A DNA stretch of 64,000 nucleotides from Nitrospirota bacterium. GTDB lineage: Bacteria; Nitrospirota; UBA9217. The notes under the pieces were generated by a model that saw only the letters and a program-made list of their open reading frames with translations, made no database searches and was not told the DNA's origin. Each line of letters starts with the position of its first letter. Positions within the stretch are counted from its first letter, which is position 1. Of this stretch, positions 3,096 to 59,705 are shown in pieces. The stretch is from the NCBI GenBank assembly GCA_021814615.1, contig JAKAHZ010000001.1, positions 31,178-95,177 on the forward strand, in the 5' to 3' direction. The position numbers and the translations under genes were made by a program.

Positions 3096-3560
3096 ATGAA
3101 CAAGTACAATATCGATGAAGTGCTCGAAATGGCAGTCCAGACCGAGCGTCTGGGTTATCAGTTCTACACGTCCATGGCGGAGAAGTTCAAGAACGACAAG
3201 GCGCTGGTGGACCTCTTCTCCACCCTGGCAAGCAAGGAGCGGAACCACGAGAAGGTCTTCACGGACCTGAAGAACATGGTGACCAAGTCGGGCACCGACC
3301 CGGTGGAGTGGCAGGAAGTGTCGAACTACATGCGCGCCTTCGTGGAGTCGGAGTTCTTCCTCGGCCGGGGAAAGTCCCTCCCCTCCATGGACCACATCAA
3401 GTCCGTGAAGGACGCGGTCAAGTTCGCCATGGGATTCGAAAAGGAAACGCTCCTCTACTTCCTGGCGCTGCGCGGCGTGGTGCGGGAAAAGGAGATGGTC
3501 GACGAGGTGGTGAACGAGGAAAAGAGCCACATCATGTGGCTTGCGGCGTTCAAGATCTAG
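3096..3560 (+). CDS. Ferritin-like diiron four-helix-bundle protein (rubrerythrin family)
   Basis: Two E...ExxH motif pairs ('QTERLG','KERNHEK','FEKETL','NEEKSHIM'); RBS GGGAGA upstream of ATG. Confidence 0.6.
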   Translation: MNKYNIDEVLEMAVQTERLGYQFYTSMAEKFKNDKALVDLFSTLASKERNHEKVFTDLKNMVTKSGTDPVEWQEVSNYMRAFVESEFFLGRGKSLPSMDHIKSVKDAVKFAMGFEKETLLYFLALRGVVREKEMVDEVVNEEKSHIMWLAAFKI

Positions 3561-4527: not shown

Positions 4528-5520
4528 GTGAACATCGCCGAAACCCTGAAAGCGAATCCCCTCGTGCTCGCGCCCATGGCAGGCATCACGGACCTGCCCT
4601 TCCGCGTGATCTGCCGCGAGCTGGGCGCCGGCATTGTCTACTCCGAGATGGTGAGCGCTGAGGCACTGATCCGCAATCAGCCGCGCACCCGGGAAATGCT
4701 CGTGACCGTTCCTTCGGAGCGGCCCGTGGCGTTCCAGATCTTCGGCTGCCGGCCCGCATCCATGGCGGGCGCTGCCCGGATCCTTTCCGAGCTCCCGATT
4801 GACATCATCGACATCAACATGGGCTGTCCCGTGCCGAAGGTGCTCCGGAGCGGCGCGGGATCGGCGCTATTGCGGGACCTGGGACTGGCGCGGGAGATCA
4901 TGGCAGCGGTGGTCGAAGCGTCGGCCAAGCCCGTGACCGTCAAGATCCGGCTCGGATGGGACGCAAAGAGCATCATCGCGCCGGAACTCGCGCGCATGGC
5001 GCAGGATGCGGGCATTGCCGCGGTCACGGTGCACGGCCGCACCAAGGCGCAGGGTTTCTCGGGATCCGCGGACTGGACCATGATCCGGAAGGTGAAAGAA
5101 GCGGTTGCACTTCCCGTCATCGGGAACGGCGATGTCCGCTCAGCGCAGGACGCATGCCGCATGCTCGACGAAACAGGTTGCGACGGCGTGATGATCGGCA
5201 GGGCCATCGAGGGCAATCCCTGGATCTTTCGCGAGGCGAAGTCCCTGCTTTCCACCGGCGCGGTTCCGCCCCATCCCACGCTGGAGGAACGGCAGCAGGT
5301 CATGCTCCGCCACCTGGACGATGTGGTCGCCATGCTCGGCGAGAACGTCGGCATACGCGAGATGCGCAAGCACCTCTGCTGGTACACCAAGGGTCTCCAG
5401 GGCGGAGCGGAATTCCGGGAGCAGGTGAATCACATCGAAAGCAGGGAAGCGGTCATCAATGCCATCCGCTCCTATTTCAGCCATCTCAGCCGGGAAGTTC
5501 AAGGACATGTTGTGTGGTAA
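4528..5520 (+). CDS. dusB: tRNA-dihydrouridine synthase B
   Basis: 'LAPMAGITDLPFRVICRELGAG', 'INMGCP', 'IGRAIEGNPWIFRE' align with E. coli DusB throughout; probable GTG start near 4528; upstream part of listed ORF overlaps deacetylase antisense. Confidence 0.85.
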   Translation: MNIAETLKANPLVLAPMAGITDLPFRVICRELGAGIVYSEMVSAEALIRNQPRTREMLVTVPSERPVAFQIFGCRPASMAGAARILSELPIDIIDINMGCPVPKVLRSGAGSALLRDLGLAREIMAAVVEASAKPVTVKIRLGWDAKSIIAPELARMAQDAGIAAVTVHGRTKAQGFSGSADWTMIRKVKEAVALPVIGNGDVRSAQDACRMLDETGCDGVMIGRAIEGNPWIFREAKSLLSTGAVPPHPTLEERQQVMLRHLDDVVAMLGENVGIREMRKHLCWYTKGLQGGAEFREQVNHIESREAVINAIRSYFSHLSREVQGHVVW

Positions 5521-5529
5521 AAACCCCGT

Positions 5530-5702
5530 GCGAAAATCCAGGCATGTGACCGAGTCCGAGTGTTAAACATTTCGGATGTCCGAAGCCCGCAGGGCAAGTT
5601 TCCGAAATGTCCCGAGGACGACCGAACATGCCGTGAAGGATTTTCGCGGGGTGCCGTTCTTTGGCGCCACCTTTCTTCGGGCAAGCAAGAAAGGTGGCTG
5701 GA
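5530..5702. repeat. Copy 1 of ~150-170 bp structured intergenic repeat family (MITE/REP-like)
   Basis: Near-identical to 23197-23375 and 30348-30520 (reverse orientation) and partial 34085-34135; internal stems 'catttcgga...tccgaaatg' and 'gccacctttctt...aagaaaggtggc'. Confidence 0.7.
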
Positions 5703-5871
5703 GTTTTTCTCAGGCTAGCTAATACAGCATAATGTGGTTATAGAGAGATACGCACAGAAAGTCAAAAAAGCCCCTTTATTTCTACCACGAACAATTCACC
5801 CTGCGAAACCACACCAGAATGAGTCTTGCCGGAGCGCTGCAAATAACGCACCCCTTGGAGTATAATGTCCC

Positions 5872-6693
5872 ATGTCCCGGATCGCAAAACCGCTGGAACT
5901 TTTCAAACACCTTCCCCGCACGAACTGCGGCGACTGCAGGATCTCCACCTGTCTCGCCTTTGCCGCGGCGGTCATCAAGGAAGAGAAGCGGCTCGCCGAC
6001 TGCCCGCACCTGGACCGGGATCTCGTCACGAAGCTGGATGGTTCGATCGAGCGGCAGGTTAACCTGGAAACGATCCAGGAGGACCAGCTGCGGGAATTGC
6101 AGGGAAGGATCGCCGGGATCCCGCTCTCCGGTCGTGCTGCAGCCATCGGCGCAACGATGGGCAGCGGGACGCTCGTCGTCAATTGTTTAGGCAGGAACTT
6201 CGAGGTCGATGCGGCGGGAAACGTGCGGTCCCATTGCCACACCCACCCCTGGTTCTCCCTTCCCCTGCTCGACTATATCCTCACGAGCACGGGAGGCGCG
6301 GCCTCGAACCGGTGGGTTCCCTTCCGCGAGCTCACGCACGGCCGAACCTGGCAGCAGCTCTTCGAGCGGCGATGCGAGCGGCCGCTCAAAGAGCTCGCGG
6401 ACAGCCACAGCGAACTCTTCGACGAGCTGACGTCGCTCTTCAGCGCGGCCTCGTCGGACCGTATGTTCGATGCCGATATCTCCGTTCTGCTCCAGCCCCT
6501 TCCCCGCGTGCCCCTGCTGCTTTGCTACTGGAAGCCCGAGGACGGCATGGAATCGAAGCTCCACCTCTTCTTCGACGCTTCCGCCGAGGAGCACCTGCAT
6601 ATCGAGTCGCTCTTCACGCTCGGCACCGGCATGGTGCGCATGTTCGAGAAGATCATGCTGAAGCATACGGACAAGCGCCTGGAGATCCTGTAG
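5872..6693 (+). CDS. Fe-S cluster domain protein (CFeSP/RnfB-type N-terminal Cx2Cx4Cx16C motif; DUF3786-like remainder)
   Basis: 'NCGDCRISTCLAFAAAVIKEEKRLADCPH' matches the 4Fe-4S motif of corrinoid Fe-S protein large subunit / PF04060-type domains. Confidence 0.55.
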   Translation: MSRIAKPLELFKHLPRTNCGDCRISTCLAFAAAVIKEEKRLADCPHLDRDLVTKLDGSIERQVNLETIQEDQLRELQGRIAGIPLSGRAAAIGATMGSGTLVVNCLGRNFEVDAAGNVRSHCHTHPWFSLPLLDYILTSTGGAASNRWVPFRELTHGRTWQQLFERRCERPLKELADSHSELFDELTSLFSAASSDRMFDADISVLLQPLPRVPLLLCYWKPEDGMESKLHLFFDASAEEHLHIESLFTLGTGMVRMFEKIMLKHTDKRLEIL

Positions 6694-8476: not shown

Positions 8477-8578
8477 TAAACCTATCACGGAGACAGGGAG
8501 ACCCAGAGAAAAGCAATTTGCATATATGATGATTTATTCAGTGTCCTCAGTGTCTCCGTGGTGATAATCGACTTTTCG
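8477..8578. repeat. ~95-nt hairpin element (copy 1 of 2); inverted repeat cacggagacag.../...ctcagtgtctccgtg
   Basis: Near-identical copy at 59603-59705; long imperfect stem flanking an ~60-nt AT-richer loop containing 'gcaatttgcatatatgatgat'. Confidence 0.7.
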
Positions 8579-21689: not shown

Positions 21690-22751
21690 CTATTTTTTAC
21701 TTTCTTCCATCCTCTCCAGCAGCTTGAACTGCACCCGCGCCCGATGCAGGTTGTGGCCGGGGTAGCGGATGCGGAAATAGGTGTCCCCGCGGAGATAATC
21801 AGCAAGGAACCGGATGCCGAGCTCGAAGGTGATCACCTGGATGGAGAGCGGCAGCAGCTCGATCTCGCGCTTTGTCAGGAACGATCCGGCGGTTTCGAGA
21901 TATCCCGCTTTGATCGTTTCATACAATCCGGCGTCGAAGCGGACCGCGTCCAGATCCGGCGCATCCTCTCCTTCCGGATTGGCCGCCGACCGCACGCAGT
22001 CGCCGAAATCGAAATGCACGATCCCTGGCTTGACCGTGTCCAGGTCGACCATGCAGATCGCCTTGCCGGTTCCCTTGTGCACCATCACGTTGTTCACCTT
22101 GGGATCGTTGTGCACCACGCGCAGCGGGATTTCTCCGGTTGCGATGTGGTCGGTCAACGCTGTTGCCAGTGATCGGCGGCGGTAGACGAATTCGCGTTCC
22201 GCCATGATTTCGCGCGAACGGTTCTTCGGATCGGTTCGGAGCGCCTGGTCGAATTCGTCAAGATACCGGCCGGTGTAATGGAACCCGGGCAAGGTGTCGT
22301 GCAATTGGTCAGGATGGAGATCGGAAAGGAGTTCCTGGAAGGACCCCAGCGCCCGTCCGATCTCGAAGGCGTGTTGCTCTCCCTGCACCGTGTCGAAGAC
22401 CTCGCCGGATTCGATGAAATGGAACATGCGCCAGTAATCGCCCTTCCCGTCGACAAGATAGGTCTTGCCGTCCCTTGTCCGGAGCAAGGCAGGCGTTGTA
22501 TTCTCGGGATCGGGGATGCCCGCCCTGCGCAGCCGCTCCTGCACATGGGTGGTCACGGTCTCCACATTCGCCATCACCTGCTTGGGATGCAGGAACACGT
22601 GCTGATTGATCCGCTGGAGAATGTATTTCCTGACGCCGGCGTCGGACGCGATCTCGCAGAGATAGGTTTCGTTGATCAGGCCTGAGCCGAACCGCTCGGC
22701 GCGCTGGAGCGTGCCGGGAAGGGAGAAGTGCCTGATGATCCGCTCTTGCAT
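21690..22751 (-). CDS. Phosphotransferase (APH/choline-kinase fold; possibly sugar 1-kinase)
   Basis: Catalytic loop 'VVHNDPKVNNVM' (HxDxxxxN) and 'MVDLD' metal-binding motif. Confidence 0.6.
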   Translation of the reverse strand: MQERIIRHFSLPGTLQRAERFGSGLINETYLCEIASDAGVRKYILQRINQHVFLHPKQVMANVETVTTHVQERLRRAGIPDPENTTPALLRTRDGKTYLVDGKGDYWRMFHFIESGEVFDTVQGEQHAFEIGRALGSFQELLSDLHPDQLHDTLPGFHYTGRYLDEFDQALRTDPKNRSREIMAEREFVYRRRSLATALTDHIATGEIPLRVVHNDPKVNNVMVHKGTGKAICMVDLDTVKPGIVHFDFGDCVRSAANPEGEDAPDLDAVRFDAGLYETIKAGYLETAGSFLTKREIELLPLSIQVITFELGIRFLADYLRGDTYFRIRYPGHNLHRARVQFKLLERMEESKK

Positions 22752-23196
22752 GATGGGAGCATTGTACTGATTCGCGAGTGGATTAGCAAGGCGGGCGATG
22801 GGGCTTGAACCGCGAAGAAAATGAAGGAGCGGATCAACAGCCTCTTACCGCGAAGGCGCAAAGGACGCGAAGAACTGCAGGTCTTCCGCCGTTTTTTCCG
22901 GTTTTACTCGCGTTCATCCGTGTTCATCCGCGTCCTATTGCTTTCTTCTGACGTTTATTCCGGTTTTTATCCGTGTCCATCCGTGTGCGTCCGTGTCCAA
23001 ATGATTTTAGTTTTATCCGCTCTTATCCGCGTTCATCCGCGTCCAAACTAATGGGATCTGTGTTTCGGCTTTTGCGCTCTCTCTGTGCTCTCTGTGTCCT
23101 CTGTGGCAAATTCCGTAGTTGTTTGTTTTGATCCGCGTTCATCGGCGTCCCAAGCCGACTTTGAGTCCTCGCGTCTTCGTGGTAAAGGAGTTGGTT

Positions 23197-23375
23197 CCTC
23201 ACCTTTCTTGCGTGCCCAAGAAAGGTTGAGCCAAAGAAGGGCACCCGGCGATCATTCTGATCCGTCATGCTCGGTCGTCCTCAGGGCATTTCGGAAACTC
23301 GCCCTGCGGGCTTCGGACATCCGAAATGCTTTTCCTTCGGACTCTGTCGCCTGACGGGAATAATCGCATGGGAAC
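23197..23375. repeat. Copy 2 of ~150-170 bp structured intergenic repeat family
   Basis: Aligns with 30348-30520 and reverse complement of 5530-5702. Confidence 0.7.
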
Positions 23376-23593
23376 GGTAGTCAACGGCAAAGGCTCGTCG
23401 TTGGCTGGATTGATCCGCCGTTATCCGCATTCATCCGCGTCCAAAAATCTTCCTGTTTTTTCGTATCTCTGTTTTGTTTTCCCTCTGTGCTCTCTGTGTC
23501 CTCTGTGGCAAATTCCGTAGTTGTTTGTTTTGATCCGCGTTCATCCGCGGCCCAAGCCGACTTTGCGTCTTCGCGTCTTCGTGGCAACGTTCT

Positions 23594-24883
23594 TTACAAT
23601 CCCGTCGCCATGGTCTGGAAGAACGTGACGGCATCGACGGCAAAGGGCAGGGCGCAGTTGTCGTGCGTCGTGGGCTGCGAGCCTGCATTGCAGTTCACGA
23701 GCGTCACCGACGTCGATCCGTTGTTGGTCATGGCTGTCAAGGCAGTCGTTGCATTGGCATAGGGCACGATATCGTCCGCCTGCCCGTGGAAGAGCCGGGT
23801 GGGAACCTTGGGCGCCCAGTTGTAGATGTCGTTCCCAGCGACATGCGCTTTGAGCGCGGCCTCGCCCGAACCCAGGTAGCTCGACACGAATGCCGGGTTC
23901 AGCAGCGTCGTGGTCGCCACGCCCGGCCCGCCGAGGGCGCTGCTGATCTCGCTCCTCGTGTAGCTGCCGTTGAAGTAGGCATTGACCACAGCCGTGTAGG
24001 CGGAGGAAAAGTAGTAATCGATCGAGCTCGGGCTGTTGTACAGCGTGTCGTAGGCCTTGATAAAGAACGCGGTGAACGCGGGCTCCACCTGGCTCGGGAG
24101 CGCCACAACATAATGGGCCGTTCCCGTGAGATCGTAGGGCCCGTCGCCGGCCGCCGATGCGGTGATCGGGAATTCCGCGGACAGGCTTTGCTCCATCAGC
24201 TTCTGCGTGGCGATCGTCGCGTAGCCGCCTTCGGAATACCCGGTGAGAAAGAGCTGGCCGTTCGTGGAGGCGTTCACGGACGGATCGGCGAAGAAGGTCC
24301 GCGCCGCACGGTTCATGTCGACCGTGGCCGAGGCAAGCGTTGCCGCATGCAGGTAGGGATGGACCATGCCGAGGGAATCGCCGAATCCCAGGTAGTCGGG
24401 CAGCACGGTAATGAATCCCATGCCCGCAAGAGCAGCGCCGATCAGACCTTCGGAAGCGGTCACCGAGCTTGCCGAAAGTCGCGACGGCGCATCGCTGTCC
24501 TTGAAGATCGTGCCGTGCTGATAGCTGATCACCGGCCGGTTCGCGCTCCCGGGCGACGGCAGGCAGACCAGGCCCGAGGCGTTGACCAGCGCGCCCGAGG
24601 GATCGGGCGTCCCATAGGTGAGCCGGTAGCAGGCGGCCCCGTTCTTTGCCGTAATACCGGTGATGCCCAGGGCCGAGATGCCGAGGTTCAACAGATCAGC
24701 GCTGAAGGACGCTGCCGGGGACCAGGACATGAGCTGCCCGGCCGTTGCGGGCTGCGGCGGCGCGCTGCTCTTGGAATGCCCGCAGCTCATGAGCATCGAG
24801 GCCGCGAGGAGGGCGACAAGGATGCCTGCCGGACGGTTCGCCCGCCCAAAAGATCGATAGATTATTCCTGCTGTGAATTTCAT
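23594..24883 (-). CDS. Secreted lipase/esterase lipoprotein (alpha/beta hydrolase, LIP-like)
   Basis: Lipobox 'LMSCG'; nucleophile elbow 'GYSEGG'; Ser/Thr-rich linker. Confidence 0.65.
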   Translation of the reverse strand: MKFTAGIIYRSFGRANRPAGILVALLAASMLMSCGHSKSSAPPQPATAGQLMSWSPAASFSADLLNLGISALGITGITAKNGAACYRLTYGTPDPSGALVNASGLVCLPSPGSANRPVISYQHGTIFKDSDAPSRLSASSVTASEGLIGAALAGMGFITVLPDYLGFGDSLGMVHPYLHAATLASATVDMNRAARTFFADPSVNASTNGQLFLTGYSEGGYATIATQKLMEQSLSAEFPITASAAGDGPYDLTGTAHYVVALPSQVEPAFTAFFIKAYDTLYNSPSSIDYYFSSAYTAVVNAYFNGSYTRSEISSALGGPGVATTTLLNPAFVSSYLGSGEAALKAHVAGNDIYNWAPKVPTRLFHGQADDIVPYANATTALTAMTNNGSTSVTLVNCNAGSQPTTHDNCALPFAVDAVTFFQTMATGL

Positions 24884-25153
24884 GATGAGAACCTCCTGAA
24901 ACGGTGCTTGGATATTTGATATAAGGGTAGCACCTGTTTACGGCTGATGCAATCGGCGGGATAAAGAGAGGAGAACAAGCGACGAGCGAGGACCCTTCCG
25001 TGTTCATCCGAGTCCAAAACGTATTTCTTCGAGTCTTTGTGCTTCTCTTCACGAATAAAGCCGGAGAGATCGTTCTCTCCGGCCTGGAAATTCACATCCC
25101 TGCAACGTCATTGACGCTCCCTCCCCCGCAAAGCGGAGCAGGGACTTTCGCAT

Positions 25154-29100: not shown

Positions 29101-29559
29101 AATCAGAGATGAGTAAGAGCAATAAAAGGCTTGTCTCGCGCAGAGCCGCGGAGACCGCAGAGAACGGCTAGAACCAGAGACGAGAGTCAAAAGATTCTGT
29201 TTAGCTACTATTTATCCGTGCCCTCCATGTTGATCCGTGTCCAATCTTTAATCCGAATTTATCCGCGTTCATCCGCGTCCCAATAGTACTTCTTCGAGTC
29301 TTAGCGTCTTCGCGGCAAAATCTTTTCCTCTCGCAGAGACGCAGAGGAGCAGCGAAAAGCTAAGGATTGGCTCTTGCAAAGACGCAAAGGCGCGAAGAAA
29401 AGCAGCGGCTAAATCCGGGACGACGATCTAAAGACCTCATCCGTGTTCATCTGTGTTGATCCGTGTCCGATCTCTAATCCGAATTTATCCGCGTTCATCC
29501 GCGTCCCACTGGCTCTTCTTCGCGTCTTTTGGTGTCTTTGTGGCAAAGGTTTTTGATTC

Positions 29560-30261
29560 TCACTCAAAATAATTGAACTTCACGATGGCCCAGAGGGCCG
29601 AGAACCCGTCCTTCCACCCGATCTTCTTTCCTTCTTTATAGGACCGCCCGCCGTAGGAGATGCCGATCTCATAGAGCCGGTACCGCCCCCGGGCAACACG
29701 CGCCGTGATCTCGGGTTCGATGGCGAATCTATTCGAGACGAGCTTGGGCGCGATTTCCTGCAGCGCCTTCTTCGTGAACATCTTGTAACACGTTTCCATG
29801 TCGGTAAGATAGAGGTTCGTGAAGGCGTTGGAAAAGGCGGTGAGGAACTTGTTCCCGAGATAGTGCCAGAACCGCAGAACCGCGTGCGGCCTGCCGCTCA
29901 TGAACCGCGACCCGTAGACCACTTCGGCCTTGCCGTCCAGGATCGGCTTGAGCAGGTCGGAAAACTCAGCCGGATCGTATTCCATGTCGGCGTCCTGGAT
30001 CACGATATAGTCGCCTGTCGCCGCCGCAAACCCCGTCCGTACCGCAGCGCCCTTCCCGCGGTTTTTCTCGTGAAAGATGACGCGGAGCGGCGGCTGGAGC
30101 TTGGCGAGATACTCCCGCGTGCCGTCCCGGGACCCGTCGTCCACCAGGATGATCTCCTTCTCGATGCCCGCCGGCAGCGGCGCATCGACCACGCGTTTCA
30201 GGCTCTGTTCGATGGTGCGGATCTCGTTGTACACCGGCATGACGACGGTCAGAACGGCCAT
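29560..30261 (-). CDS. Glycosyltransferase family 2 (polyprenyl-phosphate sugar synthase-like)
   Basis: 'VVMPVYNE', 'LVDDGSRDGT', 'IQDADMEYDP' GT-A DxD motifs. Confidence 0.8.
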   Translation of the reverse strand: MAVLTVVMPVYNEIRTIEQSLKRVVDAPLPAGIEKEIILVDDGSRDGTREYLAKLQPPLRVIFHEKNRGKGAAVRTGFAAATGDYIVIQDADMEYDPAEFSDLLKPILDGKAEVVYGSRFMSGRPHAVLRFWHYLGNKFLTAFSNAFTNLYLTDMETCYKMFTKKALQEIAPKLVSNRFAIEPEITARVARGRYRLYEIGISYGGRSYKEGKKIGWKDGFSALWAIVKFNYFE

Positions 30262-30347
30262 GGGATCTCCTTATATTGGTCTTCCGACTTTCGCGTGGGG
30301 GAGTATCTTGAGATTGTTATGCTGTTACCAGTCCTCAGACGACCCTC

Positions 30348-30520
30348 CGGCCACCTTTCTTGCTTGCCCGAAGAAAGGTGGCGCCCAAGAAGAACACCCC
30401 GCGACTATTCTGTTCCGTCTTGCTCTGTCGTCCTCGGTACATTATAGAAACTCGCCCTGCGGGCCCAGACAGTCTGAAATGTTTCACCCGCGGACTCGGT
30501 CGCATGACGGGAATGTTCGC
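30348..30520. repeat. Copy 3 of ~150-170 bp structured intergenic repeat family
   Basis: Reverse-complement match to 5530-5702. Confidence 0.7.
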
Positions 30521-30672
30521 AGGGGGGGCAGGCAAAACCTTAATAACTGTTACTCAGCATGTTCCCGGAACGTTTTCTACGCGCCTTTGCGTCGCTGCGA
30601 CAAAACAAGCTTTGCTTGTCTAGCTGTTCTCCGCGCCCTCTGCGGCTCTGCGGGAACATGCCCTGGCATTGC

Positions 30673-31260
30673 CTATTTCCAGCGCGGAATATTATACAGC
30701 TTCGTGCAGATCGCGTCGAACTGAATTTCCTCGCTCCGCAGGCGGTCCCGGTATCGCTCGATGTCGCCGTCCCGGCCCTGGAGCTCCGGCGAAACGAGGC
30801 AGAGTTTGAACCCCGCGTCCTTGAGCGTGCGGAAGGCAGCCTTGTCGATCGGGAGCTTCGTAAAGCAGTCCACCCAGACCCAGTCCACTCTTCCCCTGAG
30901 CGCCAGCACCGTGTCCAGCCCCTCATACTCCGAATAGCGGACCGCGATGTTTCGCTCTCCCTGCGACGAGAGCAGCATCATCATGGGAAAGGATGAGTCG
31001 AGGAAGAAGTAATCGCGCACGCCGGCTCGCCGGATCAGCTCCAGCACGCGATGCTCGATCCGTTCGCTCTTGATGTTCAGGATGAGCGTGCCGTGGCGAT
31101 ACCCTGCGAGGTATTCCTCGAAGTCTTCGCCGTCGGTGAACGGGTCGTGCTGCAGGATCAGCCGATCCCCCCGGTCGCGAAGATCAAGCTCCACGCCGTA
31201 TTCCACGGGTACCTTGGCCAGCTCGTCTTTCCTGTTGATGCGGTGGGCGATGAACTTCAT
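30673..31260 (-). CDS. Glycerophosphodiester phosphodiesterase-like (GDPD/PI-PLC superfamily) short protein
   Basis: 'FIAHRINRKDEL...VELDLRDRGDRLILQHD' resembles GDPD His/Glu/Asp catalytic motifs; ATGA overlap with upstream GT2. Confidence 0.4.
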   Translation of the reverse strand: MKFIAHRINRKDELAKVPVEYGVELDLRDRGDRLILQHDPFTDGEDFEEYLAGYRHGTLILNIKSERIEHRVLELIRRAGVRDYFFLDSSFPMMMLLSSQGERNIAVRYSEYEGLDTVLALRGRVDWVWVDCFTKLPIDKAAFRTLKDAGFKLCLVSPELQGRDGDIERYRDRLRSEEIQFDAICTKLYNIPRWK

Positions 31261-31961
31261 GACGACAACCCCTTCTTGAGCCGCACGCTGAAATCGAGCG
31301 TGCGCTTGATGAACTTCCATTTCGACCGGAGGCCCGTGTTCCAGCTCGACGCGCCGTGGATGCGCGGCGGAAACCGCACCGGGAACCGGACGATCTCGAA
31401 TCCCCGCTTCCGCGCGAGGTAGAGCGCGTAGAGATCGAGGGAAAAATCGTCGGGCGGGTTCGTCCAGCTCTCGAGGAACCGGCGCGGAAAGAGGTTCGGC
31501 TGGGCATTGATGTCCCAGAGCCGCTGCCCGAGGTACAGCGTCTCGAACAAGCTCATCCCCACGGTGAACACCTGGTCGAAGAGCGGCCGTCCCCGGCGGC
31601 TGCCCTTGACCAGAATGGCCCCCGGATTGCCGCGACGCTCGATAATCTCCAGCGCGCGCAGCGCATCGGAGGGGTCGGTCTGCAGGTCGGCGTGGGTCCA
31701 TCCCGCGTACTCGCCGCGGGCCGCCGCCAGTCCCTGCCGGATCCCGTAGCCGTATCCGCGGTTCACCGGCACGAGCACGGTGCGCGCGAAGGGATAGCCC
31801 GGCAGCAACTCGTCCAGCACCTTCTGGCTGCCGTCCCGCGATCCATTGTTGACCAGGATCGCCTCGACATCGGGCCGGGTGATCGCCGCCTTCAGCCGCT
31901 CCAGGATCAGCGGGATGTTTTTCGCTTCATCGTAGCAGGGGATGACGAGCGAGAGTTTCAT
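31257..31961 (-). CDS. Glycosyltransferase family 2
   Basis: 'LVIPCYDE', 'VNNGSRDGS' GT-A motifs; 4-bp overlaps on both sides. Confidence 0.75.
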   Translation of the reverse strand: MKLSLVIPCYDEAKNIPLILERLKAAITRPDVEAILVNNGSRDGSQKVLDELLPGYPFARTVLVPVNRGYGYGIRQGLAAARGEYAGWTHADLQTDPSDALRALEIIERRGNPGAILVKGSRRGRPLFDQVFTVGMSLFETLYLGQRLWDINAQPNLFPRRFLESWTNPPDDFSLDLYALYLARKRGFEIVRFPVRFPPRIHGASSWNTGLRSKWKFIKRTLDFSVRLKKGLSS

Positions 31962-33589
31962 GGCTTCTTCCGGTCCCGGTGTTCGTACACGGTCAGATAG
32001 AAGCCGTTCGATCCGTTCTTCGTCTTGTTGCTGAAATCGAGTTCCGTCTCCGACGGCGCCTCGCGCAGGCCCGTGGATTCGAAGCCATCCTCCGCGAGGA
32101 TCGACGCGATCTGCTGCGGGAGCGGCCCCCGGTGGCTCACGAAGACGATTGCCCCGTCGTGAGGAATGCGGCCGATCAGTTCCCGCTGCAACGACGGAGC
32201 GTAGTAATTGAAGTTCGTCACCACATTGTAGTTCCGCATGACCGACGGCATCAGTAGGAGGTTCATGGTCCAGTCGTACTCGATCGCCAGCGCTTTTTTA
32301 TGCGCGGCAAGCACGGAGACGATCTCGCGCTCGTCGAAGGGATCCCGGCGCGACGCGAAGACTCCCGGCGCCGACGCAAGGAAGAGGAGCGCCATGACCG
32401 CGGCAAGGCCGGGTGCAGACCAGGCGCGGAGCCGCGCGGCGATCCCTTCCCGCCTCACCTTGCCGATGAGATACGAAAGCCCCTCGCCGATGCCGATGGC
32501 GAAGAGCGGGAGCAGGATCAGCGTATGACGCGTGGGCCCGAAGGAAAGCCGCCGCATCACGATGAGGACCGCCCAGGTGAGGGCGGTCACGCCGGCGAAG
32601 AGGCCGAGCATCCGCCGATGGCGGTCCTTGGTATCGATGCAGCTCGCCGCACCGGCGATAAAGAGCGCCAGGAGCAGGTATTCCAGAGGCGCGGCGAGGG
32701 GATGGCCCGCCGGAAGCAAAGCCACCGTGTTCCGGAAAACGGCGATACCGTTCTCCCCGAAGAACCGGACCGAGTACCACGCCGCTTCGAGGATCCCGGA
32801 AGGCAGCGAGAAGGCATACTCGCCGTTCACGCCCCCGTTCCAGCTGATATAGGCCGCCTTCTGCGGCACGGTCCTGATGAAGAAATAGTAGAGCGGCGCA
32901 ATGAAGAGAAGCACGACCGCGAGGGTAACGGCAAGGTTCGCTGCGGCATCTCGCATAGCCTCCCGCGATCCGCCCCGGCTCACAAAAAGCGCAATGAAGA
33001 CGCCCGGCAGAAAGAACAGGATCTGGTACTGGGCCGTGCAGAGCACACCCAGGCCCAGGCCCAGGAGCAGCATTCGCGGATAGGTCCAGGCGCCGGGCTT
33101 CAGCATTCCCTGGAGCAGGAGCAATACGGCAACAGCAGCCGGAATGCCGATCGCGTAACTCGACATCTGCTTCGCATAGATGATGTTCTCCCAGGAGAAA
33201 GCGGCTACGGCGACGGCAAGGAGCATCGACGGGAAACCTTCGCTCCCCCGGAAGCGCCAGTACCAGACGGCCAGCAGCGCGAGCCCGAGAGCGCCGGCAA
33301 GGAAAGACGGAAACCGTCCCCACCAGAGCACATCACGGTACGGCTGGTCGGAAGAGATGAGCAGCGCCGTGAGAAGGTACTGGAGCGGCGCATAGGTCGT
33401 CCTGTTCGCCACCGCATAAACCTTGTCAAGATATCCCGCTTCGCGCGGCCCGTCCTGGGCGTTGTTGATCGCCACCGCCACGTTCAGATCGTCGATATGG
33501 CTGAAGTGCGATCCCAGGCCGGCAAGACGGACGGCGATTCCCAGGAACAGCAGGCAGCACAACGCGATGATCCAGGTTCGTTTATTCAT
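31958..33589 (-). CDS. GT-C fold membrane glycosyltransferase (ArnT/PMT-like, family 39/83)
   Basis: Multi-TM with first-loop 'SHIDDLNV' acidic motif and large loops typical of polyprenyl-P-sugar-dependent GT-C enzymes. Confidence 0.65.
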   Translation of the reverse strand: MNKRTWIIALCCLLFLGIAVRLAGLGSHFSHIDDLNVAVAINNAQDGPREAGYLDKVYAVANRTTYAPLQYLLTALLISSDQPYRDVLWWGRFPSFLAGALGLALLAVWYWRFRGSEGFPSMLLAVAVAAFSWENIIYAKQMSSYAIGIPAAVAVLLLLQGMLKPGAWTYPRMLLLGLGLGVLCTAQYQILFFLPGVFIALFVSRGGSREAMRDAAANLAVTLAVVLLFIAPLYYFFIRTVPQKAAYISWNGGVNGEYAFSLPSGILEAAWYSVRFFGENGIAVFRNTVALLPAGHPLAAPLEYLLLALFIAGAASCIDTKDRHRRMLGLFAGVTALTWAVLIVMRRLSFGPTRHTLILLPLFAIGIGEGLSYLIGKVRREGIAARLRAWSAPGLAAVMALLFLASAPGVFASRRDPFDEREIVSVLAAHKKALAIEYDWTMNLLLMPSVMRNYNVVTNFNYYAPSLQRELIGRIPHDGAIVFVSHRGPLPQQIASILAEDGFESTGLREAPSETELDFSNKTKNGSNGFYLTVYEHRDRKKP

Positions 33590-33974
33590 AGGACAAGGCG
33601 CTCCTCCGGAAAACCAGCCATTTCATGCCGATGAAATTCAGCACCGTGCTCGTACCCGTGGCGGCGAGCACGGCGAAAAAAACCGCGCCGGGCAGAAGCA
33701 GCAGGCAAAGTTTGTTGACCAGCACGTTGGCGCCGAGCGTCGTTGCGTAGACCGCGGCGAACCGAACCGCCTCGGCCAGGGACCGGCGCTTCTGTTCGAA
33801 GGTCCAGTGCTTGTTCAGGAAATAGGACACCACGGTGCCGCAGACGAAGGAAACCGCCTTGGCGGGCGAGTGGCTTGTCACGTTCAGGAGCAGATAGTAG
33901 GTCCCCCAGTCCGTTCCGACGGCAAGGGAACCGACAACAAGGAACCGCTTGATCTCTTTCGTCAGTCGATGCAT
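33582..33974 (-). CDS. GtrA-family membrane protein (polyprenyl-P-sugar flippase-like)
   Basis: 4-TM ~130 aa 'FLVVGSLAVGTDWGTYYLLL...KHWTF' GtrA signature; overlaps GT-C gene. Confidence 0.7.
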   Translation of the reverse strand: MHRLTKEIKRFLVVGSLAVGTDWGTYYLLLNVTSHSPAKAVSFVCGTVVSYFLNKHWTFEQKRRSLAEAVRFAAVYATTLGANVLVNKLCLLLLPGAVFFAVLAATGTSTVLNFIGMKWLVFRRSALSYE

Positions 33975-34287
33975 GGTAAAATCACCTTTGCCGCGAGGGC
34001 ACGAAGACACAAAGGAACGGCAGACAACCAAGATGCTATGACCTCAAAAAACGCTGCGCTTGAACTCGCCTTCCCCATGCGGAAAGGATTTTCGCGGGGT
34101 GCCCTTCTTTGGGTCACCTCTTCGTGTCATTGCGACTCGTGATAAACAGCATTTATATGATGAACTCGTAAAAAGGCTTTCGCCACAGAGGTCACCGAGG
34201 ACACAGAGAAAAATATCTTGTTTTATGAAGCATTATCTCTGTGATCTCTGTGTGCTCTGTGGCAGATTTTGACTTTCTACGATTCTG

Positions 34288-35934
34288 TCATATATGCTTC
34301 TGGCAGAACTCCCGGTACTTCCTGTCGAGCTGTCCTACCCTCTCCGGATTCATGGTCACGTCCTTGTCCAGGCGATAGGGATGCCAGGCGCATTTATGAA
34401 AGAAACTCTGCCAGTACTCGTAGGTCCGGAGGTCGTTCGGCGTTCCCCAGCACAGGTAGCTGTCCACCGGGAAGACCTTGACCCGGAGCCCCATGCCGAT
34501 AAGCTCGTTCACCGTGCTGTCCACGTAGAACTCGTTGTTCACCCGCACGTTCCTGTCCGTCATGCGCCGGAGCGCCTCGGTGAAATGCCGAACCTTCCGG
34601 AACCAGAAAGTGCCCACGATCGCGTGATCGTTGTAGGGGTCCATCGAGACGGGCACCTTGACCGAAACGGCTTGCACGTCGTTTTCCCCCGTCGTCCTGA
34701 GCCAGCCGTACATGTGCGGATTCCGCTCAGCCGACGGATGCCTGCGGAAGCTCCAGACCACGGCATCGACCGCAGGGGCCTCCACGAGCCTGCGAAAGGC
34801 CTCACCGTCCCAAAGCATGCCGTTATCGCAGGCGCCGATCAGGAGCTCCGCCTCGGGATCGGCCTTCCGGAGGCCGATGGCGCAGGTGACAGCCTGGCCT
34901 TCCGTCACCGCATCGAGGCGCACCACGTTGGCCTCGGGATAGGCCGCGCGGATCGCCTGCTCCAGCGGATAGGCGCGGGCATGCTCGTCCAGGCAGACGA
35001 AGGTCTGCCGCTCCGCCTTCGGGAGATAGGCCGCGGCCTGCACGATCATGGGCTTCCCGCTCACTTCGATCAGGGGCTTGGGAACGGTGTAGCCCTCTCT
35101 GCGGAACCGCTCCCCTTTGCCTGCCAGCGGGATCAGCAGGATGCTGTTCCTTCGCGCGGCACCGTCGGGCAGCGGCCCGATGATCCTGCGGAAGTAGTCG
35201 GACCAGGCCTGGTACTCCTCCAGATCGCGCGGCGTGCCCCACTGGAGCATGTGCTGGATCTCGTAGATCGAGACCGTAAGTTTGTCGGCAACGAGCAGGT
35301 TATAGACCATGCTCACGTAGTACTCGCCCTTCACGTGAATGTCGGCGTCCATGAGCTTCCGGAAATACTTTTTCACCAGGTCGCCGCGCCGGAAATAGTA
35401 GGTCCCGTCGGAGGCGTACTCCTGCGTCCGGTCCTTGGTGAAGGGCTCCTTCTCGCGGATCTCGAGCATCCACTGTTCGCGATCGCGCATGAAGGCGTAG
35501 TTCGTGCTGCCGAGCATGTGGGGATGGAAGCCTTTATACGCCGGGATCGCGCCGTCGGCCTTCCGGCCCCGCGTGTGGCGAAGGAAACCGGCGTAGTCCC
35601 AGTACTTGGCGAAGTCGCAGTAGTTGACGATCACTTCCTCGTCGTCGGCGATGCGGTCGAAGATCCGGGCCACCGCGTAGACCGGCCCCTTCTTGTGCGG
35701 CGCGATCTCGACGATCTCGCCCGCCGGCGCGGCGCGCAGCAGGATCTCGCGCATCTTCGTGGTCCGCAGGTGGTCGCTGTTGCAGATGAAGGTGAACTTC
35801 GTCTCGCCGGGAAAGAGCGCGATCACGCGCTCGATGATCGTCTTGCCGTCCGCCTCGATCAACGGCTTGGGCAGCGTGTACCCCGCGTCAAGGAAGCGCT
35901 TGCCCGTGCCGGACATGGGAATGATGATGTGCAT
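34288..35934 (-). CDS. Tandem double nucleotidyltransferase (two NTP_transferase/GT-A-like domains)
   Basis: Two G-x-G-x-R-F loops 'IIPMSGTGKRF' and 'LIPLAGKGERF' ~270 aa apart. Confidence 0.6.
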   Translation of the reverse strand: MHIIIPMSGTGKRFLDAGYTLPKPLIEADGKTIIERVIALFPGETKFTFICNSDHLRTTKMREILLRAAPAGEIVEIAPHKKGPVYAVARIFDRIADDEEVIVNYCDFAKYWDYAGFLRHTRGRKADGAIPAYKGFHPHMLGSTNYAFMRDREQWMLEIREKEPFTKDRTQEYASDGTYYFRRGDLVKKYFRKLMDADIHVKGEYYVSMVYNLLVADKLTVSIYEIQHMLQWGTPRDLEEYQAWSDYFRRIIGPLPDGAARRNSILLIPLAGKGERFRREGYTVPKPLIEVSGKPMIVQAAAYLPKAERQTFVCLDEHARAYPLEQAIRAAYPEANVVRLDAVTEGQAVTCAIGLRKADPEAELLIGACDNGMLWDGEAFRRLVEAPAVDAVVWSFRRHPSAERNPHMYGWLRTTGENDVQAVSVKVPVSMDPYNDHAIVGTFWFRKVRHFTEALRRMTDRNVRVNNEFYVDSTVNELIGMGLRVKVFPVDSYLCWGTPNDLRTYEYWQSFFHKCAWHPYRLDKDVTMNPERVGQLDRKYREFCQKHI

Positions 35935-45929: not shown

Positions 45930-46153
45930 TCAGGACTCCTTTTGCCGCTCTCGGCGCGGCCGGGGATCATACAGGGAGAACGAACTGCTCGATAATAGAC
46001 TCGCAAAAAAAATCTATTTAGCCACAGAGGTCACAGAGAACTCAGAGAAACAATTTCAATCTCTAAAGATCTACCTCTGTGCTCTCTGTGCGCTCTGTGG
46101 CAGCTCTTGACGTATTACGATTTTCATCAATCGATGAAACCACTCCACTGCCG

Positions 46154-48597: not shown

Positions 48598-48658
48598 GAA
48601 CTCTCCGTCAACTAAGACTGGTTCTTTGTACTCGGTACGTTGTACTCAGTACTGTTCT

Positions 48659-49417
48659 TCATTCCGCCGTAATCGGCCCCACCGCGCTGCCGGTGATGAA
48701 CTGCTTCACAATCGGGTTCGTCGTATTCTTTATATCGTCGGGCGTCCCCGTCTCGAGGATCTCGCCCTTGTACAGCATGGCGATCCGGTCCGAGATCTTG
48801 TAGGCGCTGTGCATGTCGTGGGTGATGGCAACGGACGTGACGCCCAGTTTCTTCCGGAGATCGACGATCAGATCGTTGATCGCGTCGGCCGTGATCGGGT
48901 CCAGGCCCGTGGTGGGCTCGTCGTAGAGGATAATCTCCGCATCCATGGCGATGGCCCGCGCCAGGCCCACGCGCTTCCGCATGCCGCCCGACAGGTCCAC
49001 GGGCATCTTGTCCTCAACGTTCTTCAGGCCCACGAGCGCCAGTTTCTCGGTCGCGATCTTCCGTATCTCCCGGTCCGACAGCTTCGTATGCTGCTTCAGT
49101 CCGAAGCCCACATTCTCCCAGACCGGGAGCGAATCGAAGAGCGCGGCCATCTGGAAGAGCATGCCGAACTTCTTCCGCACCTCGTTCAACTGCTGGGCGT
49201 CCAGGTTGTTCAGCACCTGGCCGGCGACCTTCACCTGGCCCCGGTCGGGAAAGAGCAGCCCGATGATGTGCTTGATCAGCACGCTCTTGCCGCTGCCGCT
49301 ACCGCCGATCACGGTCACGCTCTCGCCCTTGCTGACCGCGAGATTCACGCCGCGCAGCACCTGCAGGCTCCCGAAGCTCTTGAAGAGGTCCGTTATCTCG
49401 ATCATCGTCTCGGGCAT
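48659..49417 (-). CDS. mlaF: ABC transporter ATP-binding protein MlaF
   Basis: Walker A 'GGSGSGKS', ABC signature 'LSGGMRKRV', Walker B 'ILYDEPT'. Confidence 0.85.
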   Translation of the reverse strand: MPETMIEITDLFKSFGSLQVLRGVNLAVSKGESVTVIGGSGSGKSVLIKHIIGLLFPDRGQVKVAGQVLNNLDAQQLNEVRKKFGMLFQMAALFDSLPVWENVGFGLKQHTKLSDREIRKIATEKLALVGLKNVEDKMPVDLSGGMRKRVGLARAIAMDAEIILYDEPTTGLDPITADAINDLIVDLRKKLGVTSVAITHDMHSAYKISDRIAMLYKGEILETGTPDDIKNTTNPIVKQFITGSAVGPITAE

Positions 49418-50194: not shown

Positions 50195-50264
50195 AGATCA
50201 GTACTGAGTACAAAGTACAGAGTACAGAGTGTAATCAAAATCATATCTCCTAGTCCGGGTTTTT

Positions 50265-50327
50265 GGTACTTGGTACTTGGTACTTGGTACTTGGTACTTG
50301 GTACTTGGTACTTGGTACTTGGTACTT
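50265..50327. repeat. Perfect heptanucleotide microsatellite (GGTACTT)x9
   Basis: Nine uninterrupted 7-mers directly upstream of mla operon and overlapping alr stop codon. Confidence 0.95.
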
Positions 50328-51498
50328 AATTTACGATCCTCGGCACCCTCGCCGAGATGGCGCAGAGCACTTCGTAGGGGATCGTGCCGGTTGTTTCGGC
50401 GATGTCCTGCGCGGTGATGCGTTCCGCGCCCTGGCTCCCGATCAGCACGACGTCGTCGCCTGCTGAAACGCCCGGCACGTCCGTCACATCGAGCATGGTC
50501 ATGTCCATGCAGACCCTGCCGGCAACAGAAACGCGCCTGCCCCGTACCAGGGCACGGCCTGTGTTCGAGAGCAGCCGGTTGAACCCGTCGGCATAACCGA
50601 TGGGGATCGTGGCGATCAGGCTCTCCCGCCTCGTTACGAAGGTCCTGCCGTAGCTGATCGGCACCCCCGCCGGTACGCGTTTCACATGCGCGATCCGTGT
50701 TGCCAGCGAAAGCACGGGCCGGAGCTCGGCTGCGCTTCCGCCTTCCAGGGGATTATACCCGTACAACATAAGGCCGGGCCGCACCATGGTCAGGTGCGCC
50801 CGGTCGTAATCGAGCACTGCCGCGCTGTTGGCCGCGTGCCGAAGCGGCACGGCGATCCCCCGGCGTTCGAGGGCGGCGATCAGGGACGAGAACCGCTCGA
50901 GTTGCCGTCCGGCGAACTCCTTGTCCCGGAGATCGGCATCGGCAAAATGGGTCATCAGCCCTTCGACGGCGATGCCGGGGAGATTCGCAAGCCCGCTTAT
51001 GAACTCCACCGCTTCCTCGGGAACGAGCCCGATCCTGCCCATGCCCGTATCGATTTTTACATGGACCGCGATCTTCTTGCCCGCGTCCTGGGCTGCTTCG
51101 GATAACGCCCGCGCAACGGGCAGGGAGAAGACCACAGGCGTCAGGCCCGTGTCCACAACCGCGGGCGCCTGCTCCGGGAAGATCGGCCCCATGATCAGCA
51201 CCGGCGCGGGTATGCCGCTCGCGCGGAGCTCACGCCCTTCCTCCACGAGCGCAACGCCAAGCATCGGAACACCCAGTTCCACCAACCGCTTCGCCACGGG
51301 AACGGCGCCGTGGCCGTAGGCCTGCGCCTTTACCACCGCCAGCACCTTCCTGCCTCCGATACGCGAAACGACCTGACCGAGGTTGTGAGCCAGGGCGGTC
51401 AGGTCGATCCTCGCGGCCGTGGGCCGGCCGGCCGGCGATGAGGAAGCGCCGGCTGGGGACGAACAGGCGTCCGTTCCCTCAGTGGATGGTGCTCTCAT
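50326..51498 (-). CDS. alr: Alanine racemase
   Basis: PLP Lys 'VLAVVKAQAYGHGA' and C-terminal Alr motifs; N-terminal low-complexity extension so start uncertain. Confidence 0.85.
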   Translation of the reverse strand: MRAPSTEGTDACSSPAGASSSPAGRPTAARIDLTALAHNLGQVVSRIGGRKVLAVVKAQAYGHGAVPVAKRLVELGVPMLGVALVEEGRELRASGIPAPVLIMGPIFPEQAPAVVDTGLTPVVFSLPVARALSEAAQDAGKKIAVHVKIDTGMGRIGLVPEEAVEFISGLANLPGIAVEGLMTHFADADLRDKEFAGRQLERFSSLIAALERRGIAVPLRHAANSAAVLDYDRAHLTMVRPGLMLYGYNPLEGGSAAELRPVLSLATRIAHVKRVPAGVPISYGRTFVTRRESLIATIPIGYADGFNRLLSNTGRALVRGRRVSVAGRVCMDMTMLDVTDVPGVSAGDDVVLIGSQGAERITAQDIAETTGTIPYEVLCAISARVPRIVN

Positions 51499-59602: not shown

Positions 59603-59705
59603 AAACCTACTACTGAGACACGGAGACACAGAGAAAAGCAATTTGCATACATGATGATGTTTCAGTGTCCTCAGTGTCTCCGTGGTGATAATCGACTTTT
59701 TTACG
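59603..59705. repeat. ~95-nt hairpin element (copy 2 of 2)
   Basis: Matches 8477-8578; inverted repeat 'cacggagacacagag...ctcagtgtctccgtg'. Confidence 0.7.

Follow-up and report, generated by a model that had tools for sequence, protein, structure and literature searches.

Dispersed repeats of an undescribed family, so far confined to uncultured Nitrospirota, lie between the genes of a 64,000-nucleotide stretch of a Nitrospirota genome (GenBank contig JAKAHZ010000001.1, positions 31,178 to 95,177; called the window below). The element is a unit of 177 nt followed by a 6-nt purine tail (~180 bases). Its sense strand is laid out as a 125-nt irregular rod, then a 12-bp polypyrimidine/polypurine hairpin, and this fold is supported by covariation and is strand-specific. 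We read these sequences as non-autonomous dispersed repeats of an uncultured Nitrospirota clade in which the fold of one strand is conserved, the folded molecule being most likely RNA that is read within neighbouring mRNAs, and we consider the case for this reading evenly balanced. From sequence comparison and position, we infer transcription, an RNA rather than a single-stranded DNA fold, a pseudoknot, a triplex and a stabilising effect on mRNA.

A repeat family of uncultured Nitrospirota

An initial annotation of the window had reported four homologous intergenic sequences, one of them partial. Scoring with a covariance model (R1, built from 25 copies) placed all four where they had been reported, with coordinates off by ~7 nt at most, and showed the partial copy, given as 34085-34135, to be a 5′-truncated remnant.

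5523..5704 (+): c1, complete, including the tail (cmsearch 5523-5701, 191.4 bits, E 2e-44)
23195..23374 (-): c2, complete (cmsearch 182.2 bits)
30347..30527 (-): c3, complete, the most degenerate copy (cmsearch 159.9 bits)
34072..34146 (+): c4, 5′-truncated remnant (cmsearch 31.2 bits, E 1e-5)

A repeat search of the window independently recovered the copy pairs (D4, I1-I3, I7), and a 27-nt motif that c4 has in common with another copy is an exact match, where 0.00 are expected in shuffled sequence. The window family is thus genuine, and chance is excluded. The c1 sequence folds at -82.6 kcal/mol (z = -5.3 against dinucleotide shuffles), and its reverse strand is also stable (z = -6.1), as expected of any hairpin-rich sequence. 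Copy c4 comprises the 3′ third of the element alone; what is left of it in the alignment is the basal helix's 3′ strand with the opening part of the 3′ domain (GGAUUUUCGCGGGGUGCCCUUCUUUGGGUCACC), and its hairpin has decayed. The upper helix of c3 carries mismatches, and the identity of c3 to any other copy is at most 79%. Because the window copies are only 78-87% identical to anything else, pairs are broken in c3 and c4 is a stump, the source genome seems to carry old, decaying copies.

The search for a known family was negative. Rfam 15 gave 0 matches at the gathering score across the whole window, a single chance snoRNA match for c1 at E up to 10, and nothing relevant to the element in 30 related loci (only a tmRNA elsewhere in the locus among the first 19). 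No described Nitrospirota repeat or RNA motif matching the element came up in the searched literature. Related copies were found in other genomes. A scan of one genome per species with a 33-nt pattern from the rod tip detected 28 loci (these and other sequences that carry the element or its parts are numbered with L below) in ~13 metagenome-assembled genomes (MAGs), nearly all labelled Nitrospirota/Nitrospirae. The source genome is absent from the representative-genome set that was scanned; it shows synteny with L001, L009 and L012 (nucleotide identity 68-76%) and therefore belongs to the same Nitrospirota group. Two element-bearing contigs of 4-5 kb (L011 and L023) come from one bin labelled Betaproteobacteria, for which mis-binning is more likely than a true second host.

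In metagenomes, a pattern from the other (3′) end of the element was found in at least 120 contigs, and covariance-model searches of metagenome contigs gave ~90 more copies, the sources being sediment, wetland and groundwater. In total, 103 uninterrupted full copies were collected, with a mean identity of 90% to the consensus. Only 9 of the 73 full metagenome copies recovered via the 3′ pattern are found by the rod-tip pattern, and true copy numbers are ~8 times the pattern match counts. With three to six pattern matches per MAG and this recovery, a genome therefore probably carries tens of copies. Local duplication, which the annotation had allowed for, is excluded, since many other genomes have the family and its flanks there are different. 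Neither c1 nor an element from L066 that shares only its 3′ module (described below) had a BLAST match among 72,556 plasmids, and three viral-contig scans returned no element copy. The viral-contig matches to words of the 3′ module were mostly chance ones in apparently coding sequence, and contig L150 has a truncated module.

A covarying, strand-specific fold

The conserved unit runs from YCCCAUGCGAAAAU to AAGAAAGGUGAC and is followed by the tail of six purines, with consensus AAARAR (base counts from +1 to +6 in 77 copies: A61, A55, A47, R74, A54, R64). The rod and tail of c1 comprise the following parts.

5524..5650 (+): rod domain (RNAalifold, covariation)
5530-5539/5638-5647 (+): basal helix, GCGAAAAUCC/GGAUUUUCGC, which closes the 5′ part as a single rod
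5541-5547/5625-5631 (+): middle helix, GGCAUGU/ACAUGCC
5568-5576/5601-5609 (+): upper helix
5585-5595 (+): tip hairpin, GCCC-GCA-GGGC
5548-5554 (+): conserved unpaired motif GACCGAG
5612-5626 (+): conserved unpaired motif CCGAGGACGACCGAA
5699..5704 (+): tail, UGGAGU

Covariation was measured on 95 distinct sequences aligned to the model, a fitting that favours the structure. Standard pairs fill 97.1% of the cells, versus 30-54% when the 3′ partners are slid by one to three columns, and 34 of the 47 pairs are changed on both sides, with a covariation score of 0.133 versus at most 0.035 in the slid controls. A MAFFT alignment of 25 genome-derived copies agreed with this, 13 of its pairs having changes in both partners. 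Compensatory pairs occur in every helix, even in the 4-bp tip (CG 66, GC 7), which at the family level reads GCCC-GNA-GGGC. The two stems named in the initial annotation (catttcgga 5568-5576/tccgaaatg 5601-5609 and gccacctttctt 5666-5677/aagaaaggtggc 5687-5698) are among the helices that carry compensatory changes; the basal helix had been overlooked. A wobble test counted 179 G.U/U.G cells versus 32 A.C/C.A cells, and this excess means that the strand written as sense is the folded one.

The unpaired positions of the rod are conserved at 97% or more, the same as the paired ones, in copies ascertained through the 3′ pattern alone. Among them are GACCGAG (5′ arm), CCGAGGACGACCGAG (3′ arm) and repeated CCGAG motifs in internal loops. 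GACCGAG occurs in the same sense on both arms of the rod, which is not expected from a decayed inverted repeat.

Downstream of the rod, the 3′ domain of c1 is made up as follows.

5651..5698 (+): 3′ domain (hairpin covariation)
5651-5655 (+): GUGCC, candidate pseudoknot strand
5656-5662 (+): (G)UUCUUU, candidate third strand
5666-5677/5687-5698 (+): 12-bp hairpin
5678-5686 (+): hairpin loop, CGGGCAAGC
5679-5683 (+): GGGCA, candidate pseudoknot partner in the loop

In all instances of this module, which a second type of element shares, the hairpin loop has GGGCA, complementary to UGCCC upstream of the hairpin, and a pyrimidine run separates this UGCCC from the hairpin. In three variants, this run mirrors the hairpin's pyrimidine strand exactly (6, 8 and 8 positions). 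These are type 1, TTCTTT with CCTTTCTT/AAGAAAGG; type 2, TTCTCTTT with CTTTCTCTT/AAGAGAAAG (11 occurrences); and type 3, TTTTTCTT with CTTCTTTTT/AAAAAGAAG (one occurrence). Types 2 and 3 are outside selection by the search pattern. The order of the segments matches a classic H-type pseudoknot, a topology in which loop 1 would run parallel to the purine strand of stem 2, in register for U.A-U and C.G-C triples (parallel Hoogsteen). Neither duplication nor inversion produces mirror symmetry, and in an antiparallel Watson-Crick arrangement the run would match the purine strand poorly, which leaves a triple helix as the simplest reading. Judged by its sequence, the 3′ domain is able to fold as an H-type pseudoknot that contains a major-groove triple helix, a prediction that is unproven and draws on three sequence variants. 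The putative pseudoknot stem GUGCCC/GGGCAC is paired in 91% of the cells, with five pairs varying on one side, all to wobble.

Two coding or recombination-site candidates and a template-type one were rejected. A type I toxin or Sib-like small open reading frame (ORF) is contradicted by frames that are broken on both strands by inter-copy indels (for example, GGAUGUC versus GGACUGUC) and that are not hydrophobic, as judged by eye. An integron attC site does not agree with copies that face both ways and lie 7-18 kb apart, nor does a diversity-generating retroelement (template/variable repeat pair) with inter-copy differences that are not limited to adenines.

Spread, gene context and possible roles of the copies

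The element behaves as a REP/ERIC-like dispersed repeat that is probably mobile, and not as a riboswitch or gene regulator. Gain and loss of copies show when related genomes are compared: between L009 and L012, where synteny extends for several kb at ~80% identity, the element occupies different spacers and orientations, and L019 has the element together with an upstream module where the orthologous L005 spacer has unrelated sequence. The closest relatives of a copy, window copies excepted, are found in the same or a sister genome, a clustering that points to within-lineage amplification or homogenisation. Some copies are truncated at the 3′ end (L023; the second copy in L025) and others at the 5′ end (c4; L114 775-847). 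In five orthologous pairs, the element was not consistently better conserved than its flanks, one pair showing 96% identity in the element versus 86% in the flanks. Conservation thus holds for the family as a whole rather than copy by copy.

The ends of the element (YCCCAUGCGAAAAU... and ...AAGAAAGGUGAC-AAARAR) are not reverse complements and provide no terminal inverted repeats, the palindrome being internal to the rod. Target-site duplications, a check suggested in the initial annotation, were not detected in 77 copies, where the longest word shared by the two flanks averages 3.1 nt versus 2.4 ± 0.3 in mismatched flanks and a single case, a run of T, reaches 8 nt. The same 77 copies have no fixed target word 5′ of the element: a pyrimidine is constant at -1 alone, with mixed bases from -8 to -2. 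No filled/empty site pair that would define the junctions came out of an all-against-all BLAST of 149 sources.

Copies are often joined to other repeats. A second conserved rod-like unit of ~230 nt, module A (TTTTTTGCACATCCCCTTCGCGGCC...GGGCCGCTCCGGGGACGTGCGGGGTTGGGG), immediately precedes 35 of 80 copies and shares their orientation (examples in L006 4125-4330, L019 4706-4894 and L002 669-870; alignment A5), and some copies also have it ~30 nt downstream. The window lacks this module, and Rfam has no match for it. Other upstream modules are joined to the element as well. Module C, a hairpin of ~45 nt (CCTGCACCCAGCG..ACGAGTGC....GCGAGTGCAGGG), is nested in different hosts, either at the element's tip or within module A (L014 3665-3887; L025 ~3190-3235 and 3350-3400; L016/L005; alignment A6), the nesting in the rod tip being that of L014 and L025. 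In two MAGs (L003 143-417 and L007 3695-3964), an insertion of ~95 nt with covarying hairpins lies between CCCUUC and UUUGGG in the 3′ domain, and the 276-nt insertion-bearing version folds at z = -5.6. At L026 3360-3678, two convergent copies overlap by 38 nt and have a single common terminal hairpin, whose loop is correct for one of them alone.

None of the 103 copies lies inside a gene. Genes were called family-wide with our own codon-score method, checked against the Pfam-supported genes of the window, and the context counts include some orthologous loci, so that their independence is overstated. In 54 cases, the element shares the strand of its upstream gene, and in 24 it is on the other strand. 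Of the copies between tandem genes, 28 are sense and 13 antisense (binomial p = 0.03), and 18 copies lie between convergent and five between divergent genes. The 150 nearest ORFs match 195 Pfam families with at most four ORFs per family, and no protein family is enriched among the neighbours; transposase, TnpB, RAYT and reverse transcriptase do not occur among the 25 commonest Pfam families of these 150 flanking ORFs. A regulon-type cis-regulator is thereby ruled out, and within these families an element travelling with its own protein is made unlikely. With neighbours unrelated across the family, the gene contexts carry no regulatory meaning. The genes beside the window copies are listed here; dusB, GT2 and gtrA had been named correctly in the initial annotation (Pfam).

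4528-5520 (+): dusB, whose stop codon is followed 3 nt later by c1 (Pfam)
5872-6693 (+): DUF3786/Fe-S gene, 164 nt beyond c1 (Pfam)
21690-22751 (-): APH kinase gene, neighbour of c2 (Pfam)
23594-24883 (-): lipase-like gene, neighbour of c2 (Pfam)
29560-30261 (-): GT2 gene, c3 being upstream of it
30673-31320 (-): gene without assignment, neighbour of c3
33582-33974 (-): gtrA, neighbour of c4
34288-35934 (-): gene on the other side of c4

With this placement, c1 must lie on the dusB mRNA. Copies c1, c2 and c3 each share the strand of both neighbours. GC skew is negative in 14 of 15 overlapping 8-kb windows, and its cumulative curve has no clear turning point, which indicates that the stretch lies in one replichore. 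Within it, c1 is on the (+) strand versus c2 and c3 on the (-) strand, each following its own neighbouring genes, and these three copies give weak support to an orientation tied to transcription rather than replication.

The RNA reading would work as follows. Copies in transcribed spacers, mostly downstream and same-sense, would be read as part of the neighbouring mRNAs. The hairpin would be locked by the pseudoknot (upstream GUGCCC with loop GGGCAC) and by the U-rich third strand in the major groove. Rod and knotted hairpin together would make a very stable 3′ structure, likely a 3′-exonuclease barrier or a processing site, as for REP and ERIC. We favour such an RNA-level role because conservation over the full length, long loops included, exceeds what a transposase site needs.

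Several points weigh against this reading. Sense-strand transcription is deduced from position alone, the 2:1 sense bias could stem from replication-linked insertion of a single-stranded-DNA transposon, and the replichore argument draws on three window copies. T.A-T triples and G.T wobbles form in DNA too, so the fold is no proof of RNA. Zero pseudoknot pairs vary on both sides, which leaves the pseudoknot with no compensatory pair, and the sequence could instead form a small competing hairpin, GGUGCC(C)...GG(G)CACC with a U-rich run behind it, which would be terminator-like; this hairpin with ACCUUUCUU was flagged as terminator-like in c1 and c3, at a rate equal to the chance expectation. The structured insertion of ~95 nt in the L003/L007 sub-family falls amid the proposed third strand. 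Finally, the decay of c3 and c4 and the absence of consistent constraint make a benefit to the host doubtful.

The same observations could be explained by a selfish element acting at the DNA level only, whose single-stranded DNA fold would be moved by a trans-encoded HUH/Y1 transposase in the style of REPIN-RAYT or of the IS200/IS605-derived PATEs, RNA being irrelevant. This would account for the lack of terminal inverted repeats and target-site duplications, the strand-specific fold, the extragenic copies and their mosaics with other repeats, the gain and loss between related genomes, and the two convergent copies with one common terminal hairpin (L026). Covariation at the sub-family level, with single copies under no consistent constraint, also agrees with it, and the ~68% sense bias is roughly what insertion on the lagging-strand template would give. 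However, the 177 nt are conserved throughout, far beyond a transposase hairpin site and including the long internal loops; the 5′ side shows a -1 pyrimidine instead of a fixed target motif; no tnpA, tnpB or RAYT is among the 25 commonest Pfam families of the 150 flanking ORFs; and the window copies face both ways in one replichore, following local genes. We therefore regard this explanation as unlikely, if still a serious one.

Somewhat less credit goes to independently transcribed genes for trans-acting small RNAs, for example a protein sponge acting through the repeated CCGAG/GGA loops. Strong covariation, invariant unpaired loops, and a size and shape like those of known small RNAs would suit such genes, as would the orthologous pair with 96% identity in the element; the 13 antisense copies and the five between divergent genes would need a promoter of their own. 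However, no conserved promoter-like sequence was seen upstream at a fixed distance, the flanks being unrelated or consisting of other repeat modules. In 77 copies, the terminal hairpin is followed by no U tract of an intrinsic terminator and instead by the purine-rich tail. Moreover, c1 begins 3 nt past a stop codon, copies come and go between genomes and may be truncated or interrupted, and the other orthologous pairs lack extra constraint.

A retro-element resembling a short interspersed nuclear element (SINE) is very improbable. It would pass through an RNA intermediate with a pseudoknot/triplex like that of telomerase RNA and be copied by a host or mobile reverse transcriptase. The sense-strand fold with G.U pairs, the 5′-truncated remnants that keep the 3′ end (c4; L114 775-847), the purine/A-rich 3′ tail and the lack of terminal inverted repeats could be read in this way. 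On the other side stand the absence of target-site duplications, the usual trace of target-primed reverse transcription, the absence of a reverse transcriptase among the 25 commonest flanking families, and the existence of 3′-truncated copies (L023; the second copy in L025). We know of no SINE-like system in bacteria.

A cis-regulatory RNA (riboswitch, leader or attenuator) acting on adjacent genes is close to refuted, as the neighbouring genes are unrelated, the element is mostly downstream rather than upstream of genes and there is no Rfam match. It would have in its favour that the 3′ domain has two mutually exclusive folds, one of them terminator-like, and that riboswitches with an H-type pseudoknot and a triplex are known (PMC7583470).

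Relation to known elements and other repeats

Among described repeats, the repetitive extragenic palindromes (REPs) of Proteobacteria and their BIME and REPIN assemblies are similar in being extragenic, multi-copy, hairpin-forming and strand-specific, in lying mostly 3′ of genes or between convergent genes and rarely between divergent ones, in forming mosaics with short repeats (here modules A and C and heptamer arrays), and in having neither terminal inverted repeats nor target-site duplications. REPs are also known stabilisers of upstream mRNA. However, REPs measure 20-40 nt and REPINs consist of two symmetric inverted units over ~100 nt, where our element is 177 nt long and asymmetric. It also differs from them by its conserved unpaired loops and separate 3′ domain, by the lack of a GTAG-type foot motif and by the lack of RAYT among the 25 commonest Pfam families of the flanking ORFs.

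ERIC/IRU, Correia (NEMIS) and bcr1, all of them miniature inverted-repeat transposable elements (MITEs), resemble the element as imperfect palindromes of 100-200 nt that are intergenic and dispersed, have a stable RNA fold and are co-transcribed with their neighbours, as the Nitrospirota element would be, judging by its position. These and other bacterial MITEs have terminal inverted repeats and short target-site duplications, neither of which the element showed when checked. Elements of the IS200/IS605 PATE type share the strand-specific hairpins and the lack of both features. The TnpB omega-RNA scaffold is a structured, pseudoknotted RNA of ~120-180 nt that ends before a variable flank, in which the element would resemble it. 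Unlike IS200/IS605, it has no fixed 4-5-nt target on the 5′ side, and neither tnpA nor tnpB is among the 25 commonest Pfam families beside ~100 copies. The element thus fails the defining tests of MITEs, of classical REPs/REPINs and of IS200/IS605-derived elements. The initial annotation had proposed a REP- or MITE-like element or a repeated non-coding RNA outside the described families; this broad alternative stands, given the Rfam, literature and outside-copy results, but the MITE label finds no support in the ends, the target-site duplications or the 25 commonest Pfam families of the flanking ORFs, and the classical REP label fails on size and architecture.

The 3′ domain has another set of counterparts. 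Its order of segments (pseudoknot strand, U-rich, pyrimidine strand, loop partner, purine strand) is that of telomerase RNA and of the SAM-II, SAM-V and preQ1-II riboswitches. As in those H-type triplexes, the U-rich strand would be parallel to the A-rich one, with six to eight U.A-U and C.G-C triples predicted as possible. The purine strand is the 3′-most element, as in the ENE plus A-tract. Bacterial riboswitch triplexes generally have two canonical U.A-U and one to four non-canonical triples and bind a ligand, group II introns have a catalytic triplex, and stability triplexes have been described in viral and human (MALAT1) RNAs (PMC7583470). The triplex predicted here would be much longer and would sit within a dispersed repeat.

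The TwoAYGGAY motif (RF01731) shares only the 3′ module with the window element, and does so via an element at L066 3640-4335; the window element is without AYGGAY loops and has no RF01731 match. The L066 element is an inverted doublet ~700 nt long whose 22-nt termini are perfect (ACCGGACTGGTAAGTTTGTGTG) and whose hairpins have AUGGAU loops, and it shares the last ~60 nt with the window element. One of its arms scores 43.1 bits versus an RF01731 gathering score of 43, and both arms end in a module of the pseudoknot/triplex type. Doublets of this type are also present in L107, L083, L064 and ~10 other metagenome contigs, which suggests that some sequences filed as TwoAYGGAY are parts of a MITE-like element. 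A bolder and doubtful, though conceivable, extension is that the 3′ module really adopts the pseudoknot as RNA, with a major-groove helix of six to eight triples locking it, and serves as a portable device for 3′-end protection captured by at least two unrelated repeat families (the Nitrospirota rod element and the TwoAYGGAY-like element).

The window holds further repeats. Direct repeats of 116 nt flank c2 (23070-23185 and 23472-23587; 92% identical, 402-nt spacing; families D6 and D7), opening with CTCTGTG-type heptamers and then GGCAAATTCCGTAG; their arrangement suggests tandem duplication around c2 rather than target-site duplication. Shorter relatives lie at 34234-34284, beside c4, and at 46072-46122. 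A unit of ~10 nt, (T)ATCCGCGTTC/ATCCGTGTTC, is arrayed or scattered in the intergenic gaps at 22891-23045, 23408-23443, 24997-25037, 29228-29302 and 29454-29528 (families D1, D2 and D10), where a 75-nt block is repeated with 226-nt spacing and 91% identity. At 50244-50334, ~10 GGTACTT units form a heptamer array (families D3 and I6), with an inverted partner of 39 nt (87% complementary) at 48620-48662, ~1.5 kb off, the pair bracketing the intervening gene or genes. The 17 GGGGTCA units directly before an element copy at L025 2674-2790 are comparable to this array, and such arrays resemble the heptameric STRR repeats of cyanobacteria. A 56-nt direct repeat (8478-8533 and 59603-59658; 89% identical, 51 kb apart; AAACCTAYYACKGAGACASGGAGACMCAGAGAAAAGCAATTTGCATAYATGATGAT; D12) could be a promoter or leader common to the two sites, or a further family of repeats.

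Taken as a new family of repeats and nothing more, the element brings an uncultured phylum into the lineages with REP/ERIC-like elements and would account for assembly breaks and odd intergenic structure in these MAGs. Of more interest is the conservation of 177 nt over their full length without the usual transposon hallmarks. The part most worth testing is the pseudoknot-triplex prediction for a module that is common to an unrelated element: the symmetry of the 3′ domain would correspond to a long pseudoknot-triplex, where the bacterial triplexes covered in PMC7583470 are the short riboswitch ones and the catalytic triplex of group II introns. Should the module be portable in the way suggested above, these repeats would distribute it among intergenic regions as a preformed stabiliser of RNA, the bacterial equivalent of the ENE/MALAT1 triple helices of viruses and eukaryotes.

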